NCBI RefSeq assembly: GCF_988242995.1 | Contig: NZ_OZ547043.1 | Direction: 5' to 3' (one strand) | DNA: 64,000 bases | Shown here: positions 37,823-52,229 of the stretch, one piece after another | Layout: every line of letters begins with the position of its first letter | Numbering within the stretch: position 1 is the stretch's first letter | Program-made: the position numbers and the translations under genes | Notes under the pieces: model-generated | What the model was told of the DNA's origin: nothing | Seen by the model: the letters and a program-made list of their open reading frames with translations, nothing else | Database searches by the model: none

Positions 37823-38111
37823 TTCCGTAACGTTTATCATGTTATCCTAAGGATTATCCGAAAAATAATACCTACGAACATCTTCCAGGATACTCCTGCG
37901 GCGAAATATTTGTTTTAAGGTCACTCACATATCGCAACATTTACTTTACTTTAAGACAATTCCAGGCAAATTATACAACACTTTACGGGATAGTAAGTCC
38001 GCCTGAAAAATCGCGAGAGTGGCGCATTAGGTGACCCATGTTGTTCCGTTTAGTCATGATGAAATATTCAGGTAAGGGGAATTATCGTTACGCATTGAGT
38101 GAGGGTATGCC

Positions 38112-38735
38112 ATGTCAACGATTATTATGGATTTATGTAGTTACACCCGACTAGGTTTAACCGGGTATCTGTTGAGTAGAGGGGTTAAAAAAAGAGAAAT
38201 CAACGACATTGAAACCGTTGATGACCTTGCCATAGCTTGTGATTCACAGCGCCCTTCAGTGGTGTTTATTAATGAGGACTGTTTCATCCATGATGCTTCT
38301 AACAGTCAGCGCATCAAGCACATCATTAATCAACATCCCAATACGTTATTTATCGTTTTTATGGCAATTGCCAATGTTCATTTTGATGAATATCTATTGG
38401 TCAGAAAAAATTTATTGATCAGTTCTAAATCGATTAAACCGGAATCTCTCGACGATATCCTTGGCGATATTCTGAAAAAAGAGACAACGATAACCTCTTT
38501 TTTAAATATGCCGACGTTATCATTGAGCCGAACCGAATCGAGTATGTTGCGAATGTGGATGGCAGGTCAGGGAACCATTCAAATCTCTGACCAAATGAAT
38601 ATCAAAGCCAAGACCGTTTCATCGCATAAAGGTAATATTAAACGTAAGATCAAAACGCATAATAAACAGGTTATCTACCATGTCGTCCGACTGACGGATA
38701 ATGTGACTAATGGTATTTTTGTCAACATGCGCTAA
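38112..38735 (+). CDS. rcsA: capsule synthesis regulator RcsA (LuxR-type, RcsB auxiliary)
   Basis: 207-aa ORF recognised as RcsA. Confidence 0.9.
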
Positions 38736-38778
38736 CACATTCTGACTGGTGGTTTCCCACCAGTCAGGCTGAATAAGA

Positions 38779-39057
<279 letters not shown>

Positions 39058-39129
39058 CTATACTTAAGAGATGCCAGGCGGACTTAACGACTGGCGGCAA
39101 CAACAGAGTAACGGTTGCGAGGAAAGATG

Positions 39130-39357
39130 ATGAAAACCGCAAAAGAGTACAGCGATACCGCAAAACGTGAGGTCAGCGTCGATGTCGATGCCCTGCTGGC
39201 GGCGATCAATGAAATTAGCGAAAGCGAAGTTCATCGCAGCCAGAACGATTCTGAACACGTTAGCGTCGATGGACGTGAATATCATACATGGCGTGAATTG
39301 GCGGATGCCTTCGAACTGGATATTCATGACTTCAGCGTCTCTGAAGTGAATCGTTGA
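39130..39357 (+). CDS. yodD: stress-induced protein YodD
   Basis: ORF track 39115..39357; start moved to MKTAKEYSDTAKRE. Confidence 0.8.
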   Translation: MKTAKEYSDTAKREVSVDVDALLAAINEISESEVHRSQNDSEHVSVDGREYHTWRELADAFELDIHDFSVSEVNR

Positions 39358-39370
39358 ATGCACAATAAAA

Positions 39371-39457
39371 AAATCCCGACCCTGAGGGGGTCGGGATGAA
39401 ACTTGCTTAAGCAAGAAGCACTTAAAAAATTCGTTACACCAGGAAATCTGATGTGTT
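39371..39457 (-). ncRNA. dsrA: DsrA small regulatory RNA (Hfq-dependent; rpoS activator / hns repressor)
   Basis: Reverse complement reads AACACATCAGATTTCCTGGTGTAACGAATTTTTTAAGTGCTTCTTGCTTAAGCAAGTTTCATCCCGACCCCCTCAGGGTCGGGATTT, matching DsrA including its terminator hairpin. Confidence 0.9.
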
Positions 39458-39636
39458 CATCACCTTATCCGCAATTTTTTTCGCTGACAAGAAAATATTC
39501 GCCATATGAATGATTAACGCTACTTATGAATAGAAATGTGACGCACGTCACCCCTTGGTGGCTCTGGCGTCAGCGGGATCGCTCCCGAAAAAATCATCTT
39601 TGATAATTTGTGCTGTTTTGAGAATCATCCTGGTAA

Positions 39637-42176
<2,540 letters not shown>

Positions 42177-42247
42177 CCTGCTTTTTTATGATTCTGGCAT
42201 AACCTGGCGATAGCGTACCGCAAAACAGCGATAATTTTATAATGGTG

Positions 42248-42376
42248 GCATGATAAGACGCGACAGACATCGATAGTTTTATAACGTAGGCATGATAAGA
42301 CGCGATAGCGTCGCATCAGGCAATTCAGTGCAGACACTGGCACACCCGACCGGATGCGACGTGAGCGCCACATCCG
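42248..42376. repeat. REP/palindromic-unit cluster (two ggcatgataagacgcg copies plus a 15-bp perfect inverted repeat)
   Basis: Direct repeats at 42248-42263 and 42290-42305; palindrome acacccgaccggatg...catccggtcgggtgt at 42340-42376. Confidence 0.6.
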
Positions 42377-42398
42377 GTCGGGTGTTAATGATACCCTT

Positions 42399-42581
42399 TC
42401 AAACTTCTTCCGCAGGACGACTTCCCTCCCCCGGAACAAGCTCGGTTTCATGAAAAGCTTCCCGCTTGACCCCGTAACCGTCATACCAACGACACTCAAC
42501 CATACCGCTGGAGTATCCGGTGACAATCATCCGCGGGCCGCCCTCTTTAACCGTAACTTCCTCACTAACCATAAAGCTCAT
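42399..42581 (-). CDS. yodC: DUF2158 protein YodC
   Basis: 60-aa ORF recognised as YodC. Confidence 0.8.
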   Translation of the reverse strand: MSFMVSEEVTVKEGGPRMIVTGYSSGMVECRWYDGYGVKREAFHETELVPGEGSRPAEEV

Positions 42582-42659
42582 ACTCGCCTCCTTTTTTCGA
42601 GTGAAACTTGTTCACCTTAGTTGAAGATGGCGAATTTTGCATAATAGCCTGTGCGAGTA

Positions 42660-43577
42660 TTAATGTGCCTGACCGCGTATTTTCGCTACGGCTTTCACTC
42701 CCAGCACCACGATGCCGCCGATGATAAATCCAAGAATCAGATTTAAAACAGTCGGTAATATCATCGCCACCACTGCACTTTGCTGCCCGGCGAAATGTTC
42801 AATGGCGTGATGCAGCGGCGCAATACCATGTACCACAATCCCGCCGCCGACGAGGAACATCGCCAGCGTGCCGACAATCGATAACGCTTTCATCAGCCAG
42901 GGCGCGATAATCAATAATCCTTTACCTAATGCCTGCATCAGCGCGCTGGATTTTTCCGCCAGCCAATACCCCAGGTCATCAATCTTAACGATAACCCCTA
43001 CCAGACCGTAGACGCCCACGGTCACTACCAGCGCGATGCCTGAAAGCACCAGCACCTGATTAAGCAACGGCGCTTCGGCCACAATCCCCAGCGTGATGGC
43101 GACGATTTCCGCAGACAATATAAAATCGGTACGAATCGCCCCTTTTATTTTGTCCTTTTCAAACTTCAGCGGATCCTGCGCCGCCAGCTTCTCCAGACGC
43201 TGCTGACTCTGCGCCGGATCTTCTTTATGTTTACGCGCCTCCAGCATATGCAGCACTTTCTCTCCCCCTTCAAAGCAGAGAAACGCGCCGCCAATCATCA
43301 ACAGTGGCGTAATCGCCCACGGGATAAACGCACTGATGATCAGCGCCAGCGGCACCAGAATCACTTTATTGATCAGCGATCCTTTCGCCACGCCCCAGAC
43401 CACGGGAAGTTCCCGGTTGGCCCGCACGCCTGAAACTTGTTGCGCATTGAGCGATAAGTCATCCCCTAATACACCGGCGGTTTTCTTCGCCGCCAGTTTG
43501 CCCATCACGGAGATATCGTCCAGTAGAGTGGCGATATCATCGAGCAACGTCAGTAAACTACTCCCGGCCAAAAGCAT
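42660..43577 (-). CDS. yedI: DUF808 inner-membrane protein YedI
   Basis: 305-aa membrane ORF recognised as YedI. Confidence 0.85.
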
Positions 43578-43749
43578 TCCCTCTCATTTTTATTGTTGAA
43601 GGGTGTAAGTATGAAGCAAAAACGGCAGCTCTGATACTTGCTTCACAGGTCAACATTTTTTTAACAATCAAGTGCAATTATATCTCTCGCCAGCAGAATG
43701 ATTTTCACGTTTACTATGAACCACCTTTTTATTTCCACCGTGAGGGATT

Positions 43750-44670
43750 ATGCGTTTCCGCCAGTTGTTACCGCTTTTTGGCGCGCTGTTTGCGTTGTAT
43801 ATCATTTGGGGCTCAACCTATTTTGTCATTCGGATTGGCGTGGAAAGCTGGCCTCCGTTAATGATGGCAGGCGTTCGATTCCTGGCAGCCGGTATTTTAT
43901 TGATGGCATTTTTGCTACTGCGCGGACACAAACTCCCCCCGCTACGTCCGCTGCTCAATGCCGCGCTGATTGGCCTGTTATTGCTGGCTGTCGGTAATGG
44001 CATGGTGACGGTTGCCGAACATCAAAATGTTCCTTCCGGCATCGCCGCCGTAGTGGTTGCAACCGTGCCCCTCTTTACCCTGTGCTTCAGCCGCCTGTTT
44101 GGCATTAAAACGCGCAAACTGGAATGGGTGGGTATTGCCATTGGGCTTGCCGGAATCATCATGCTCAATAGCGGTGGAAATTTAAGCGGCAATCCGTGGG
44201 GCGCGATTCTGATTTTAATCGGCTCGATTAGCTGGGCGTTTGGCTCGGTTTATGGCTCGCGCATTACCTTACCTGTAGGGATGATGGCGGGTGCGATTGA
44301 GATGCTGGCGGCAGGCGTGGTGTTAATGATCGCGTCGATGATTGCAGGTGAAAAACTGACGGCACTCCCTTCCCTTTCAGGCTTCCTTGCGGTCGGCTAT
44401 CTGGCGCTGTTTGGTTCGATTATCGCCATTAACGCTTATATGTATTTAATCCGCAACGTCAGTCCGGCTCTCGCCACCAGCTACGCCTACGTTAACCCGG
44501 TGGTCGCGGTCTTGCTGGGTACGGGACTGGGCGGAGAAACGCTGTCGAAGATTGAATGGCTGGCGCTCGGCGTAATTGTCTTCGCGGTGGTACTGGTCAC
44601 GTTGGGAAAATATCTCTTCCCGGCAAACCCCGTAGTTGCGCCAGTTATTCAGGACGCATCAAGCGAGTAA
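43750..44670 (+). CDS. yedA: EamA/DMT-family transporter YedA
   Basis: 306-aa 10-TM ORF recognised as YedA. Confidence 0.85.
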   Translation: MRFRQLLPLFGALFALYIIWGSTYFVIRIGVESWPPLMMAGVRFLAAGILLMAFLLLRGHKLPPLRPLLNAALIGLLLLAVGNGMVTVAEHQNVPSGIAAVVVATVPLFTLCFSRLFGIKTRKLEWVGIAIGLAGIIMLNSGGNLSGNPWGAILILIGSISWAFGSVYGSRITLPVGMMAGAIEMLAAGVVLMIASMIAGEKLTALPSLSGFLAVGYLALFGSIIAINAYMYLIRNVSPALATSYAYVNPVVAVLLGTGLGGETLSKIEWLALGVIVFAVVLVTLGKYLFPANPVVAPVIQDASSE

Positions 44671-45129
44671 ATGAATCCCCTGCGTGTCGATCTGCGCGCT
44701 GGCACCTTCGCCGCAGATCCACTCTTCCAGACGCTCGCTAAGCGCTTCATCCGTCAGCTTCTCGCGCCCACGTAATGCACACTCCCAGACAATCAATACG
44801 CGCCAGCCGAGTTCCTGCAAACGACTGATATCGCGGCGATCGCGTTCAACATTTTTACCTATCTTCTCCAGCCAGAACTCGGTTCGAGTCGCAGGCACTT
44901 TAAACAGATAGCAGTGATGATGATGCCAGAAGCAGCCGTGGGTAAATATCACGCAGCGATATTCATCAACGACAAAATCCGGGCGTCCGGGCAGACTGGC
45001 GTCCTGAACGCGAAATGCCAGGCCCTGCCCGGTTAACAGACTGGCGAGGCGCTTCTCTATCGCCGTATCACGCGTGGCAATCGCGCGCATATTTTTGCTG
45101 CGAGTGGCCTTATCGTGAACGTCGGCCAT
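44659..45129 (-). CDS. vsr: very-short-patch repair endonuclease
   Basis: ORF track 44659..45291; start moved to [22 protein letters not shown]; overlaps the dcm 3' end. Confidence 0.9.
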
Positions 45130-46528
45130 GTTGTGCCTCTTGCTGACGCAACGCCACCGCCTGTTTGATTTTTGGCTCAAGCAGTTTTGCCACCGCGGCA
45201 AAGACCGGCACGACCACCGAGTTACCGAACTGGCGATAGGCCTGAGTGTCCGAAACCGGAATGCGGAATTTCGCTTCTCCCGGCGCTTCAAAACCCATTA
45301 AGCGCGCGCATTCCCGAGGCGTTAACCGACGTGGACGATGTTGCTGATTCAGCGGATCGTCAAAGTCTTTCTCACCCGTGGCCATATCCCAGCCGCGATC
45401 GATTAAAATTTCCGCGCCATCTTTGTAATAACGCGCAGACAGCGTACGCGTGACGCTTCGCGGATTGTTAGGATAGACCATTCCATAACCGAAGCCGTTA
45501 CCGCGCGCCTGATGTTTTTTCGCATAACGATAGAGGTACTTCCACAGCACCGGCGTCAGGATATATTTCGCCTCGACCATCGGGTCCAGCAGCTGCGCCA
45601 GCGTCACTCGCTGTGCAGGGAAACATTCGCTGATATCACGCAGAGTAAAATCGGCTTTCAGATTAAGATCGCGACGAAAACCCACCAGCACGATGCGTTC
45701 ACGGTGCTGCGGCAGAAAATGTTTACCATCGATGATTTTCGGATCGTCCGGCCCGTTATCTTCTGCATCAGCCACGTCATAGCCCAGTTCGTCCAGCGTC
45801 TGCATGATGATGCGGAACGTTTTACCCTGGTCGTGGCTTTTCAGGTTTTTGACGTTTTCGAGCACAAACATCGCCGGACGACGCGCGTCGATAATGCGCA
45901 CCACATCAAAGAACAGCGTGCCCTGAGTATCGCAGGCAAAACCGTGCGCCCGCCCGAGCGAGTTCTTTTTCGATACGCCAGCCAGCGAAAATGGCTGACA
46001 AGGGAAACCGGCCAGTAAAACATCGTGTTCAGGAATGTGTTTACGAATATGTTCCGCCGCCGCCTCATCACTCACGCCTTCTTTATGGCTGAGGGTGATG
46101 TCGCGGATATCTTCATTAAAATGATGCGTCGCCGGGTCGCAATAATGATTGGCTTTATAAGTGCGTACCGCATGTTTGTTCCATTCGCTGGTAAACACGC
46201 ATTGTCCGCCAATCGATTCAAAACCGCGACGGATGCCGCCAATTCCGGCAAATAGATCGATAAAGCGAAACGCATAATGCGGATGATGTGCCGGTGGTTT
46301 GGGTAACAACGTTTGCAGATGGGCGAACTCTTTCTCACTTAAACGGTGCCATGCCGAGTCATTCGCCAGCGCACGTTTTAAAATTGCCGCGCTCCAGTGA
46401 TTCTCACCCACACCATTAAGCTGCGCCACCAGCGTTTTAACATCATAAATTTGCAGCAGTTTCTCCAGCATTGCCTGTGCGGCATTCCCGGTGCTGTATG
46501 AATCGGTTACTGATATATTTTCCTGCAT
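45110..46528 (-). CDS. dcm: DNA cytosine-5 methyltransferase (CCWGG)
   Basis: 472-aa ORF with C5-MTase motifs (FAGIGG, PCQPFS, ENV); recognised Dcm. Confidence 0.95.
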
Positions 46529-46594
46529 AGATTTAACCGGCCATCTGAGATGGCCGACAGGTTAACATAATTACAGCCATTTAGGGCCACGCGC

Positions 46595-47290
46595 TTATCC
46601 CGCGGGTGAAAACGCATCTATCACCTTGTGATCGACACCTTCATTCTCCCCCGCCAGTTCGGCACTGAGCTTCGCCATAAACTCGACTAAAAAATGCGCG
46701 TTGTGCTGCGCCAGCTGCTTGCCTCTTGCGGTTTGCATGGTTTGCGGTAGCTTCAGCAACTTAGTCTGGAAATGATCCAGCGCGTAGCGTTTATCATCAA
46801 GCGGGCGATGCTGTGCGAACGGATCTTCACCATCAAACAGCGCCACGCCCAATGCCCCTGAAACGGCAAACACGCGCGCCAGGCCAATCGCCCCCAGGGC
46901 TTCCAGCCGATCCGCATCCTGGACGATTTTAGCTTCCGTTGTTAAGGGGGCGATTTGCGCGCTGAAACTGTGAGCGGCAATGGCATGACAAACGGCCTCG
47001 ATTTTCTCCGCCGGAAATTGCTCGAACTCTTCACGGAGCAGGCGACGCGTCTCTTCTGCCGCCAGGATTGAAGAACGCTGCCTTTGCGGATGATTTTTCG
47101 CCAGGCTCACAATATCGTGAAAATAACAGGCGGTTAAAATCACCAGCATATCGACATCGTCATCTGCCGCCAGCTTCTGTGCCGTAGCCCAGACGCGGCG
47201 AAAATGACACACGTCATGGGCCGCGTCCTGGTGCTGATGATGGTTTTTCAACCAATTTTCGAACTGTGCCTGCCAGTGTTGTAAGTCCAT
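46595..47290 (-). CDS. yedJ: HD-domain phosphohydrolase YedJ
   Basis: 231-aa ORF with HD motif. Confidence 0.85.
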
Positions 47291-47329
47291 ACGCGCTCCG
47301 TTGCCAAAGAGCCGCCACCTTAGCAGTTT

Positions 47330-47713
47330 TTATTCATAGCGTCTGCTACGTGCGGGACGAGGTCGGGTGTACCAGGCAATGCTGCCTAACAATGCCCCGA
47401 CCAGAGCCATAAATAAAAATCCGACCAGTGCCCCTAACCACTTTCCCGCGGTAGAGCCTAAATCGCTTTCAAATCCCGACACGGGGGCATCGGGGATCCG
47501 GCTCATCACCCAGATGTAACGCGCCATTGCCCAGACGAAATAGCCACACCATGTATAGAAAGCCCACAAAGCCAGTTTGCCGCCAGGGCTGCGAGAGAGT
47601 CTCTCTTCCATCTTTGTCGAACCGTATTCCATTTTGAGATAACCCGGAAAATTCAGACTTAGTACTATTATGTGATAAAAGTCACATTTTTCCACATTGG
47701 ATGAGCCAGTCAA
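47330..47713 (-). CDS. yedR: inner-membrane protein YedR (start codon uncertain)
   Basis: 127-aa ORF containing the recognised YedR sequence ...MEERLSRSPGGKLALWAFYTWCGYFVWAMARY... Confidence 0.7.
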   Translation of the reverse strand: MTGSSNVEKCDFYHIIVLSLNFPGYLKMEYGSTKMEERLSRSPGGKLALWAFYTWCGYFVWAMARYIWVMSRIPDAPVSGFESDLGSTAGKWLGALVGFLFMALVGALLGSIAWYTRPRPARSRRYE

Positions 47714-47861
47714 GACTCACTCATTTTTTGAACAAATAGATAATTTTTGCGCAACGGCAGTGAATACAGGAAAAATCGTTTTGAGCGATTTTATTTATCT
47801 TTGATATCGGCTTTATTAATTCATTTAATCAATATATTAGCACTGATTACAATTATACCTT

Positions 47862-47949
47862 TTTATTATTCTGTGTCATGATGCTTACGTTATTAGCCTT
47901 TTATCGTCTTGTTTATATTTTTTGGGCCGGCATGATGCCGGCTTTTTTT
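47862..47949 (+). ncRNA. rseX: candidate RseX-like small RNA (5' end approximate)
   Basis: Intrinsic terminator gccggcat/gatgccggc plus T7 run at 47926-47949 with no ORF upstream; I recall RseX mapping between yedR and the yedS porin in K-12 (position and strand from memory, not verified). Confidence 0.35.
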
Positions 47950-48260
47950 ATACCTTCATTAATGTGCGCGTGATCACACCAAGTGTTTAGCGCAACAATC
48001 ATTGATACTCCCTATCTTTCCGCTTAACTCATAACATATTGATATACATTTATAATTTTCATGAATATTTATATTTGGAATTCATAATTCTGAATTATAT
48101 TAAATAGATTAGAAACATTTTGAAATCTTTTAAATACATTTGTTACATGTAATCCTTAAAATAAAATGAACTTCATAGAATAGTATCCAAATGTGCTTTT
48201 TTTTGGATAACGGCACTTATTGATATATTCATGAAGATTATAATCACAAGGGAATACATA

Positions 48261-49319
48261 ATGAAAAGAAAAGTTCTGGCAATGCTGGTCCCGGCGTTAT
48301 TAGTTGCTGGCGCAGCAAATGCGGCTGAAATTTATAATAAAAATGGCAATAAACTGGATTTGTACGGCAAGATGGTTGGTGAGCGCATTCTGACCGACCG
48401 TGAAAATGGTGAAAAAGGCGATAATTCTCAAGATACCTCTTATGCCCGTGTAGGCGTGAAAGGTGAAACTCAGATCAACCCTGAATTGACTGGTTACGGT
48501 CAGTTTGAACTAGACCTGGAAGCATCAAACAGACACAACCCTGACCAAACTCGTTTGGCTTATGCTGGTTTGAGTTACAAAGATTTTGGTTCATTCGACT
48601 ATGGTCGTAATGTCGGTGTCGCGTATGATGCAGAAGCATTTACTGATATGTTTGTTGAGTGGGGCGGTGATTCATGGGCTGGTACTGACCTGTTCATGAC
48701 CAACCGTACCAACGGTGTTGCAACCTATCGTAACACAGATTTCTTTGGCATGGTTGAAGGTCTAAATTTTGCTCTGCAATATCAGGGTAAAAATGAAGGT
48801 ACAGGCAACTACAAAGCAAATGGCGATGGCCATGGTTTATCTGTAACTTACACTATTGACGGTTTCTCATTTGCTGGTGCTTACGCAAACTCTGATCGTA
48901 CTGATTTCCAGTCTAGTGATAGTAAAGGTGAAAAAGCAGAAGTTTGGGCACTGTCAACAAAATATGATGCCAACAACGTCTATGCTGCTGTGATGTACGG
49001 TGAATCTCACAACATGAATTCCGACGACGGTGATGTTGTGAACAAAACACAAAACTTCGAAGCTGTTCTGCAATATCAGTTCGACTTCGGTCTGCGTCCA
49101 TCCATCGGTTACTCCTATTCTAAAGCACTGGACGTAGCAGGTTACAAAGATTCTGATCGTCTGAACTACATTGAAATCGGTACCTGGTATTACTTCAATA
49201 AGAACATGAACGTATATACCGCTTATCAGATCAACCTGCTTGATAAGAGTGATTATGTTCTCGCTCATGGACTGAACACCGACGACCAACTCGCATTTGG
49301 TATCGTCTACCAGTTCTAA
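48261..49319 (+). CDS. yedS: general outer-membrane porin, OmpC/OmpF/PhoE family (yedS-type), apparently intact
   Basis: ORF track 48231..49319; start moved to MKRKVLAMLVPALLVAGAANA signal peptide; ends with the porin C-terminal ...VYQF; single uninterrupted 352-aa frame. Confidence 0.85.
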   Translation: MKRKVLAMLVPALLVAGAANAAEIYNKNGNKLDLYGKMVGERILTDRENGEKGDNSQDTSYARVGVKGETQINPELTGYGQFELDLEASNRHNPDQTRLAYAGLSYKDFGSFDYGRNVGVAYDAEAFTDMFVEWGGDSWAGTDLFMTNRTNGVATYRNTDFFGMVEGLNFALQYQGKNEGTGNYKANGDGHGLSVTYTIDGFSFAGAYANSDRTDFQSSDSKGEKAEVWALSTKYDANNVYAAVMYGESHNMNSDDGDVVNKTQNFEAVLQYQFDFGLRPSIGYSYSKALDVAGYKDSDRLNYIEIGTWYYFNKNMNVYTAYQINLLDKSDYVLAHGLNTDDQLAFGIVYQF

Positions 49320-49362
49320 TCAGCCAACGCGCCGCGGCGTGTTACTGTAAAACTTAACACTA

Positions 49363-49398
49363 GCCTGAGTTCGTCCCTCATCGAACTCAGGCTTTTTT
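49363..49398 (+). terminator. rho-independent terminator of the porin gene
   Basis: gcctgagttcg...cgaactcaggc followed by tttttt. Confidence 0.6.
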
Positions 49399-49911
49399 AT
49401 TGGCATTTTATCTCCCTCTGCGGCACGCGCAATTGCCAAAGCATATCGATACAGTACCTTACCCTGCCCCTGCTGGCACAATAACATCTACCAGCGACTC
49501 ATCCAGCCAACACTCCAAATACATTTCTTTATGAATTAACCCGCAACAAACACGCCTCCCATATAGAAATTTTTGCAAAAAAAGTGCATGGAAAAAGCTT
49601 TTTCTCTACCAATCCGCGATATAAATATTCATCAGTACCACAATATTTCACAGCACTAAATCTCTCCCCGCCGCCCCGTACCTTTGATAATGGTCTAAAA
49701 TCATTGAGGCCACTTGCGACGACGTTGCTCAATAAGGAAAATTTGGCGTGAATAATATTCAACACCAGTGCAGCATCATCATTACATACTTACACCCGCC
49801 GACTACCGCTTTCGATATATTGACTCAATTTTCCAGACTGGTTAAAAATAGCGACCAGCTCAGTCGCAAATATAGTGACTACCCTAACTAAGCAACAATA
49901 AGGAATACACT

Positions 49912-50763
49912 ATGACTGTTCAAACAAGTAAAAATCCGCAGGTCGATATTGCTGAAGATAATGCATTCTTCCCTTCAGAATATTCGCTTAGCCAATATAC
50001 CAGTCCCGTCTCTGATCTTGATGGCGTGGACTATCCAAAACCGTATCGCGGTAAGCATAAAATTCTGGTGATCGCCGCGGACGAACGTTATTTGCCAACC
50101 GATAACGGAAAACTGTTCTCGACCGGTAACCATCCGATTGAAACGTTGCTGCCGTTGTATCATCTCCATGCTGCAGGTTTCGAATTCGAAGTGGCGACCA
50201 TTTCCGGTCTGATGACCAAGTTTGAATACTGGGCTATGCCGCACAAAGATGAAAAAGTAATGCCATTCTTTGAGCAGCATAAATCGTTGTTCCGCAATCC
50301 GAAGAAACTCGCGGATGTTGTCGCCAGCCTCAACGCTGACAGCGAATATGCAGCAATCTTTGTTCCTGGTGGTCATGGCGCACTTATTGGTTTACCAGAA
50401 AGCCAGGACGTAGCTGCTGCTTTGCAGTGGGCAATCAAAAATGACCGTTTTGTTATCTCCCTTTGCCACGGCCCGGCGGCTTTTCTGGCGCTTCGCCACG
50501 GCGATAACCCACTGAATGGTTATTCCATTTGCGCATTCCCAGACGCCGCAGACAAACAAACGCCAGAGATAGGCTATATGCCGGGTCATCTCACCTGGTA
50601 CTTCGGCGAAGAGCTGAAGAAAATGGGCATGAACATTATTAATGACGACATCACCGGGCGAGTACATAAGGACCGTAAAGTTCTCACCGGCGACAGTCCT
50701 TTCGCAGCGAATGCGTTGGGTAAACTGGCGGCGCAGGAAATGCTGGCAGCTTATGCGGGTTAA
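49912..50763 (+). CDS. hchA: Hsp31 glyoxalase / protein deglycase
   Basis: 283-aa DJ-1/PfpI-family ORF recognised as HchA. Confidence 0.95.
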   Translation: MTVQTSKNPQVDIAEDNAFFPSEYSLSQYTSPVSDLDGVDYPKPYRGKHKILVIAADERYLPTDNGKLFSTGNHPIETLLPLYHLHAAGFEFEVATISGLMTKFEYWAMPHKDEKVMPFFEQHKSLFRNPKKLADVVASLNADSEYAAIFVPGGHGALIGLPESQDVAAALQWAIKNDRFVISLCHGPAAFLALRHGDNPLNGYSICAFPDAADKQTPEIGYMPGHLTWYFGEELKKMGMNIINDDITGRVHKDRKVLTGDSPFAANALGKLAAQEMLAAYAG

Positions 50764-50799
50764 TCCCTGTTACGTATGAATGTAAGCGCATAATCAATC

Positions 50800-50837
50800 G
50801 CAGCCACGTTAATACTCACGACGTGGCTGCGTTTTTT
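50800..50837 (+). terminator. rho-independent terminator after hchA
   Basis: cgcagccacgt...acgtggctgcg followed by tttttt. Confidence 0.55.
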
Positions 50838-50870
50838 CATGGTTGATTTATGGCGTACTGAAGCCCTATG

Positions 50871-52229
50871 TTAATTTCTTTGCGGTAACATAATCCGGAA
50901 CACATTATGCTTATTGAGATAGTGATACGTAGCACTTCCCCCATGTAATTCGGCAATCGCTTTGACTAAAGAAAGACCAAGTCCCTGACCTACGGAATGA
51001 CGCGAATTATCTCCCCGCCAAAATCTACGGAAGAGTTTTTCAGGCTCATGAATTTTCGTTCCAGGACTGGCGACATCAATATTAAGATAGCCGTTGGTAT
51101 CAAGAAAACTGGTTATCTCAATACGCGATTTTTCTGGTGAATATCTAATGGCATTAACAATAAGATTCGATAACATTCGTTGCAGTAAAATTTTATCCGC
51201 AAAGATTTGCTGATTGCACTCGACCTTAAAGCAAATCTCTTTCTCGTCTGAAAGGTATTCAAGATAATCCAACAAATTTTCGACTTCCTTATTGAGAGAA
51301 AGCGAGTCCAGTTTCACCAAAACATTGTTTTTATCTGCCCGGGCAAGAAACAGTATGTTCTCTGTTAACCGCGAAATATTTTCCAGCTCTTCAATGTTAC
51401 CGGCAATTGTTTTTTGATATTCAGCGATACTTCTGGTTTGACTGAGCGTAACCTGATTCTGACCCAGTAATGCATTAATGGGCGTTCTAAGTTCATGAGC
51501 GAGATCGTCAGCAAATTGACTTAGGCGTTCAAAATCTTTGACTAAAGCATGATGCATTTTATTCAACGCCTGCCCAAGAGGTTTTAGTTCTCTCGGTAAT
51601 GCGCTAACCTCAACAGGCTCCCGGCTATCGTTATAATTCAGCGCTTCCGTTACACCACTCAACTTTTTGATCTCTCGTAACCCCGTTCGGATTAACAGCG
51701 GACTTAATACTGAGCACAGTATAATGGCGACAATGCAAATTATAATGCTATTGATTTTATACTGTTCAAGCATGTTATGTCTGGCTGAAGCCAATTTAGC
51801 CACAGTAACCGTTAATGATGGCGAAACTTCATCAATATTAATTCGTAAAGCATCTATCTCTGTATCATTAATAATGCTTCTGTAAATGCCAGCTGCGCTG
51901 ATTGTCTCACTAGCAGGTATGTTATTTAACATGCCATCACTGACATTTGTCCGGTTAACAATTTTATTGATGCTATCACCATGAATGATCAAGATATCCT
52001 GACTAACATCCATCATCCGGTTAAAGTACACAGGTAACGTATCTGGATTTACCCCATCAATTAACAACTGCTTGATCTGTGCTGTCCGGTTAATGAGTGT
52101 TGTATCATCGCGCCATTTCAACTCACTTGCCAGGCCATTATAGAGAGTCCAGACAATTCCAGCACCAGCAACAGACAGTAGCAATATAAAAAGCAAGGTT
52201 AAACGGACGGTTATAGACAATCTTTTCAT
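50871..52229 (-). CDS. hprS: sensor histidine kinase HprS (YedV)
   Basis: 452-aa ORF with TM, HAMP and HisKA/HATPase regions (HELRTP). Confidence 0.9.
   Translation of the reverse strand: MKRLSITVRLTLLFILLLSVAGAGIVWTLYNGLASELKWRDDTTLINRTAQIKQLLIDGVNPDTLPVYFNRMMDVSQDILIIHGDSINKIVNRTNVSDGMLNNIPASETISAAGIYRSIINDTEIDALRINIDEVSPSLTVTVAKLASARHNMLEQYKINSIIICIVAIILCSVLSPLLIRTGLREIKKLSGVTEALNYNDSREPVEVSALPRELKPLGQALNKMHHALVKDFERLSQFADDLAHELRTPINALLGQNQVTLSQTRSIAEYQKTIAGNIEELENISRLTENILFLARADKNNVLVKLDSLSLNKEVENLLDYLEYLSDEKEICFKVECNQQIFADKILLQRMLSNLIVNAIRYSPEKSRIEITSFLDTNGYLNIDVASPGTKIHEPEKLFRRFWRGDNSRHSVGQGLGLSLVKAIAELHGGSATYHYLNKHNVFRIMLPQRN

Follow-up and report, generated by a model that had tools for sequence, protein, structure and literature searches.

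The locus at 44659-46528 raises the question of whether its cytosine methyltransferase gene, dcm, belongs to a restriction-modification (R-M) system or is a solitary methylase joined to a repair gene, vsr. The whole stretch of DNA that was analysed (the window) is 64 kb long, and at this position it contains two intact open reading frames, both on the minus strand. The first, dcm (45110-46528), runs from ATG to TAA and encodes a DNA-cytosine (C5) methyltransferase of 472 residues, and the second, vsr (44659-45129), runs from ATG to TGA and encodes a very-short-patch (VSP) repair T:G mismatch endonuclease of 156 residues. Read directly from the letters, the two genes overlap by 20 nt at 45110-45129 on the minus strand (ATGGCCGACGTTCACGATAA). 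The vsr frame is +1 relative to that of dcm, the vsr ATG falls within the last seven dcm codons, and the dcm stop codon TAA occupies 45112-45110. On the minus strand the junction is ...CAA C ATG GCC GAC GTT CAC GAT AA G..., with vsr starting at the ATG, and a sequence comparison found the same 20 letters in K-12. The original prediction had placed the pair at exactly these coordinates, had named the two genes as dcm and vsr, and had described a vsr start lying 20 nt inside the 3' end of dcm as a known arrangement. All of this was borne out, with only the strand left unnamed in the prediction, and the partial overlap of dcm and vsr in E. coli is indeed published (PMC4444293; PMC4924334).

A mechanical ORF caller placed the vsr start at a TTG at 45291, which would give a protein of 210 residues. 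This start was rejected and the ATG at 45129 preferred, because the latter is annotated in RefSeq on identical DNA as well as in K-12 and gives an end-to-end match with the crystallised Vsr. Six nucleotides 5' of this ATG, and within dcm, is a Shine-Dalgarno-like AAGAGG (45136-45141, minus strand), which is a putative ribosome-binding site for vsr. At its other end vsr is convergent with yedA, which encodes an EamA transporter (43750-44670, plus strand). The 3' ends of the two genes overlap by 12 nt at 44659-44670 (TCAAGCGAGTAA), so that the vsr stop codon lies within yedA, and nothing resembling a terminator was detected within these 12 nt.

The identities of both genes are supported by Pfam, NCBIfam, solved structures, and the comparison with K-12. 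The catalytic domain of Dcm matches Pfam DNA_methylase (PF00145) with 260.5 bits (cutoff 22, E=3.3e-77), and residues 19-75 match the N-terminal domain DNA_meth_N (PF18284, 72 bits, E=3.9e-20), a domain common to Dcm and M.EcoRII-type enzymes. Against the NCBIfam model NF007772 the protein scores 950 bits, where the cutoff is 710. Solved structures of the methylase are available as 3me5, which matches the window's Dcm over its full length, and 3lx6, which matches it as well. The conserved motifs of C5 methyltransferases are motif I (FxGxG), motif IV (PCQ, containing the catalytic Cys), motif VI (ENV), motif VIII (QxRxR), and motif X (GN). In Dcm these are found as FAGIGG at 93, PCQ at 176-178 with Cys177 as the catalytic residue, ENV at 224, QHRER at 274, and GNS at 435. 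Given its 99.6% identity to K-12 Dcm, which methylates the inner cytosine of CCWGG (PMC4924334), the enzyme is predicted to modify the same base.

Vsr matches its Pfam domain (PF03852) with 134 bits (cutoff 27, E=1.2e-39) and TIGR00632 with 183 bits (cutoff 98). The structure of Vsr has been solved in 1cw0, 1vsr, and 1odg, and over 155 aligned residues the protein encoded here differs from chain A of 1cw0 by a single S/T substitution at 131. The residues that we take, from the Vsr structure literature, to be catalytic (D51, T63, H64, and H69), zinc-binding (C66, H71, C73, and C117), and DNA-intercalating (F67, W68, and W86) are all present. The two open reading frames are not a chance pattern, because their domain matches reach E-values of 3e-77 (DNA_methylase), 4e-20 (DNA_meth_N), and 1e-39 (Vsr). 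VSP repair targets T:G mismatches in CTWGG/CCWGG and is initiated by Vsr (PMC2715241), and near-identity to that characterised enzyme suggests that the window's Vsr nicks 5' of the T in a T:G mismatch within CTWGG/CCWGG.

Whether dcm has a restriction partner was addressed through its neighbours, through direct searches for an endonuclease, and through defence-system models. The genes around dcm-vsr are yedA (EamA), yedJ (HD), drpB (DrpB), yedI (DUF808), yodC, and dgcQ. The nearest on the dcm side, yedJ (46595-47290, minus strand), begins 66 nt upstream of dcm and encodes an HD-domain phosphohydrolase (NF007515 equivalog), which is not a restriction enzyme. Among the six to seven neighbouring proteins searched with Pfam and PADLOC, no nuclease or defence match was found besides Vsr. 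The original prediction had stated that the flanking genes contain no endonuclease domains; this is correct for restriction endonucleases but not for endonucleases in general, since Vsr is itself one. Its activity is to nick at T:G mismatches rather than to restrict DNA, and its PADLOC model is labelled "Type II nicking endonuclease". For the direct search we took as queries the endonucleases found beside plasmid-borne relatives of Dcm, which belong to the EcoRII family (EcoRII-N/EcoRII-C) and the MvaI/BcnI family (MvaI_BcnI). In tblastn against the whole 64-kb window neither gave a match (best E=0.28), while the plasmid methylases and a plasmid Vsr, which served as positive controls, strongly matched the window's dcm and vsr. 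The best PADLOC model for Dcm is that of an orphan methyltransferase (oMTase, PDLC03733), with 1071 bits over the full length; the best Type II R-M methylase model scores lower, at 860 bits. No integrase or IS element flanks dcm-vsr.

An R-M system is recognised by an endonuclease gene adjoining the methylase gene, and none adjoins dcm. A methylase counts as an orphan when it is conserved, has a fixed place in the core genome, and lacks a partner endonuclease, and this is what was found within the window. The neighbour families, the tblastn searches, and the PADLOC scores therefore indicate that, within this one window, the locus is not an R-M system and is an orphan by definition. The prediction of a solitary methyltransferase with no adjoining restriction gene, made from the letters of the DNA, thus stands. 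It could still be argued that a working R-M system exists, with Dcm as its methylase and an endonuclease that either goes unrecognised among the neighbours, YedJ being one candidate, or is encoded elsewhere, as on a plasmid carrying EcoRII. Plasmid relatives of Dcm with approximately 69% identity do adjoin EcoRII-family or MvaI/BcnI-family endonucleases, and the visible genome amounts to 64 kb only; the orphan call applies to that window, and the strain may carry a plasmid-borne EcoRII elsewhere. However, the genes on either side are part of the conserved E. coli core, belong to unrelated families (EamA, HD NF007515, DUF808, and DrpB), and match no defence model; endonucleases of both types failed to match the window; and the model that fits Dcm best is of the orphan class. 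What is more, the K-12 locus has been found experimentally to be a solitary methylase (PMC4924334). We consider a working R-M system highly improbable.

The conservation of the locus points the same way. Megablast located the segment 44000-47200 in 5367 of the 5426 complete E. coli genomes, with many records 100% identical, and the matching records annotate yedA, vsr, dcm, and yedJ. The 1870-bp operon alone is likewise present in 5367 of the 5426 complete genomes, nearly always as a single chromosomal copy, and its identity is at least 95% in 5319 of them. In all records inspected the gene order is yedA, vsr-dcm, yedJ, drpB. It is scarcely credible that a mobile EcoRII-like R-M system decayed here recently, losing its endonuclease and leaving a methylase that is becoming a pseudogene and not a maintained housekeeping function: Dcm does share DNA_meth_N and approximately 69% identity with the R-M-linked plasmid methylases, and loss of the endonuclease has been proposed as the origin of orphan methyltransferases that have R-M orthologues (PMC3424554), but both open reading frames are intact and keep all catalytic motifs, the high identity extends to those 5319 genomes, the locus has the same chromosomal position, flanked by core genes, in all records inspected, and the window contains neither a trace of a restriction endonuclease nor a flanking integrase or IS element. 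A more ancient R-M ancestry of dcm may be real, as a matter of history and not of present function. The locus is almost certainly the chromosomal dcm-vsr operon of E. coli, consisting of a solitary methylase and an overlapping VSP repair gene.

Examples of the matching E. coli genomes are H71 and NZ_CP114893.1. In the same set of 5426 complete genomes, 59 have no dcm-vsr match and a few keep the vsr end only, as in strain CM13, where coverage is 28%; dcm therefore appears to be deleted now and then. Two dcm-vsr matches are on records labelled plasmid. When the window was compared by BLAST with E. coli 1303, positions 38000-53199 were 99.97% identical, and the identity elsewhere was 98-99% with two divergent segments.

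The genes drpB, yedJ, dcm, and vsr share the minus strand, and the gaps measure approximately 39 and 66 nt. A consensus scan of the 66-nt spacer between yedJ and dcm (46529-46594) detected neither a sigma-70-like promoter nor a convincing intrinsic terminator, and the dcm ATG is not preceded by an obvious Shine-Dalgarno sequence. Strong promoter-like sites were detected by the scan only upstream of drpB (47667-47879, minus strand). With no promoter or terminator found between yedJ and dcm and with promoter-like sites upstream of drpB, the crude consensus scan and the gene order weakly hint that drpB, yedJ, dcm, and vsr share one transcript. That YedJ is not only co-transcribed with the methylase but also functionally tied to cytosine methylation and VSP repair, for example through nucleotide-pool or damage handling, seems to us very unlikely. 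An 8-bp GC-rich hairpin upstream of the dcm ATG (46538-46556) was considered as an unusually stable structure and rejected as not significant, because its z-score is -1.31 and 22 of 200 shuffled sequences fold as well.

Several other features of the window were recorded. The genes for two small RNAs, DsrA (39371-39457, minus strand, 102 bits) and RseX (47860-47949, plus strand, 97 bits), are at their expected K-12 positions, flanking the dcm-vsr neighbourhood on either side. At 48231-49319, on the plus strand, an intact gene for a porin of the Porin_1 family (362 residues; 352 in RefSeq on near-identical DNA) occupies the site of the fragmented K-12 pseudogene yedS, and over most of this gene, from about 48367 to 49305, the K-12 sequence is unaligned in megablast. 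The intergenic region between dgcQ and yodC (42265-42371) exceeds its K-12 counterpart by 67 nt, because a REP-like unit (GGCATGATAAGACGCGA...) is present in an additional copy and a palindromic element next to it carries 13 inserted nucleotides. The segment 17372-21289, which covers fliC (flagellin) and the start of fliD, is unaligned to E. coli 1303 between flanks that align at 98-99%, a divergence that would fit a different H-antigen allele. A match to the small RNA STnc490 is found at 17944-18067 on the minus strand. A tRNA-Asn gene at 58626-58698 is followed by a small island remnant, within 58626-64000, for which the best-matching genome annotates a tyrosine integrase pseudogene with an internal stop, IS1A, a truncated yeeJ, a family-9 glycosyltransferase, and shiA. 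This arrangement is shared to at least 80% by only 142 of the 5426 genomes, and no restriction-enzyme gene is annotated in the island in the best-matching genome.

We also examined the oligonucleotide composition of the window. The tetramer CTAG is depleted (32 observed versus 94 expected, O/E 0.34) and CCAG/CTGG is enriched (O/E 1.27); depletion of the former together with enrichment of the latter is the classical pattern of VSP repair. For pentamers, on the other hand, a maximal-order Markov model gave no enrichment of CCWGG, of which the window has 149 sites (O/E 0.77), and CTAGG had an O/E of 1.24 from 7 sites only. Since the tetramers fit the VSP pattern and the pentamers do not, composition is not used here as support.

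Gene identity, intactness, the overlap, conservation in E. coli, and the lack of a restriction endonuclease in the window were established directly, and the CCWGG specificity, the nicking at T:G, and the dependence of vsr on dcm are carried over from published work on K-12, whose genes are nearly identical. Dcm, as a solitary C5 methyltransferase, would methylate the second C of CCWGG, and the resulting 5-methylcytosine would be expected to deaminate spontaneously to give a T:G mismatch. Vsr would then nick CTWGG/CCWGG on the 5' side of the mispaired T, and resynthesis of a very short patch would restore the C:G pair. In K-12, VSP repair is stimulated by MutS and MutL but can proceed in their absence, and the interaction of Vsr with MutL has been mapped (PMC2715241). 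The position of the vsr ATG, 20 nt inside the end of dcm and in the +1 frame, suggests that the repair enzyme is made from the transcript of the methylase, in which case vsr expression would depend on dcm. Such dependence is invoked because vsr activity, too, is lost in dcm-6, which has a nonsense mutation at codon 45, as related in the passage of PMC4444293 that cites Dar & Bhagwat 1993.

The dcm-vsr locus is already known as the textbook chromosomal pair of E. coli, and there is nothing unusual in the present copy; the locus was recognised correctly, and its recognition alters no existing understanding. The pair serves as an example on two counts. Its overlap is the classic coupling of a mutagenic DNA modification to the repair that offsets its cost. 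Dcm is also an example of an orphan methylase able to neutralise a selfish R-M system, EcoRII. In K-12 its target is the same as that of the plasmid-borne EcoRII system, and it guards cells against post-segregational killing by EcoRII (PMC4924334; PMC3424554).

The closest known system is the operon of K-12 MG1655 (M.EcoKDcm, b1961; Vsr, b1960), in which dcm encodes a solitary methyltransferase and shares an operon with vsr (PMC4924334; PMC3424554) and which has the same genes, context, and 20-nt overlap as the window. The two operons differ at 32 of 1870 nucleotide positions. Dcm is identical to its K-12 counterpart at 470 of 472 residues (Q163K and Q357R) and Vsr at 155 of 156 (T131S), and all three substitutions are outside the catalytic motifs and the active-site residues listed above. 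Thousands of more distant Dcm homologues, with 60-80% identity, were found on plasmids by tblastn, and two of them illustrate the contrast with R-M systems. In the EcoRII-type system of Morganella morganii p1 (NZ_CP135145.1) the methylase is 69% identical to Dcm over 449 residues, its gene is convergent with that of a 404-residue EcoRII-N/EcoRII-C endonuclease, and there is no overlapping vsr; the window, in contrast, has vsr and lacks the EcoRII-type endonuclease. An Acinetobacter plasmid (NZ_CP044465.1) encodes a Dcm-like methylase with 70% identity and a Vsr homologue with 43% identity, but here an MvaI/BcnI-family restriction endonuclease gene is located between the two, and vsr is on the opposite strand, separate from the methylase gene and not overlapping it. 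In the window vsr is co-oriented with its cognate methylase gene and overlaps its 3' end by 20 nt in the +1 frame.
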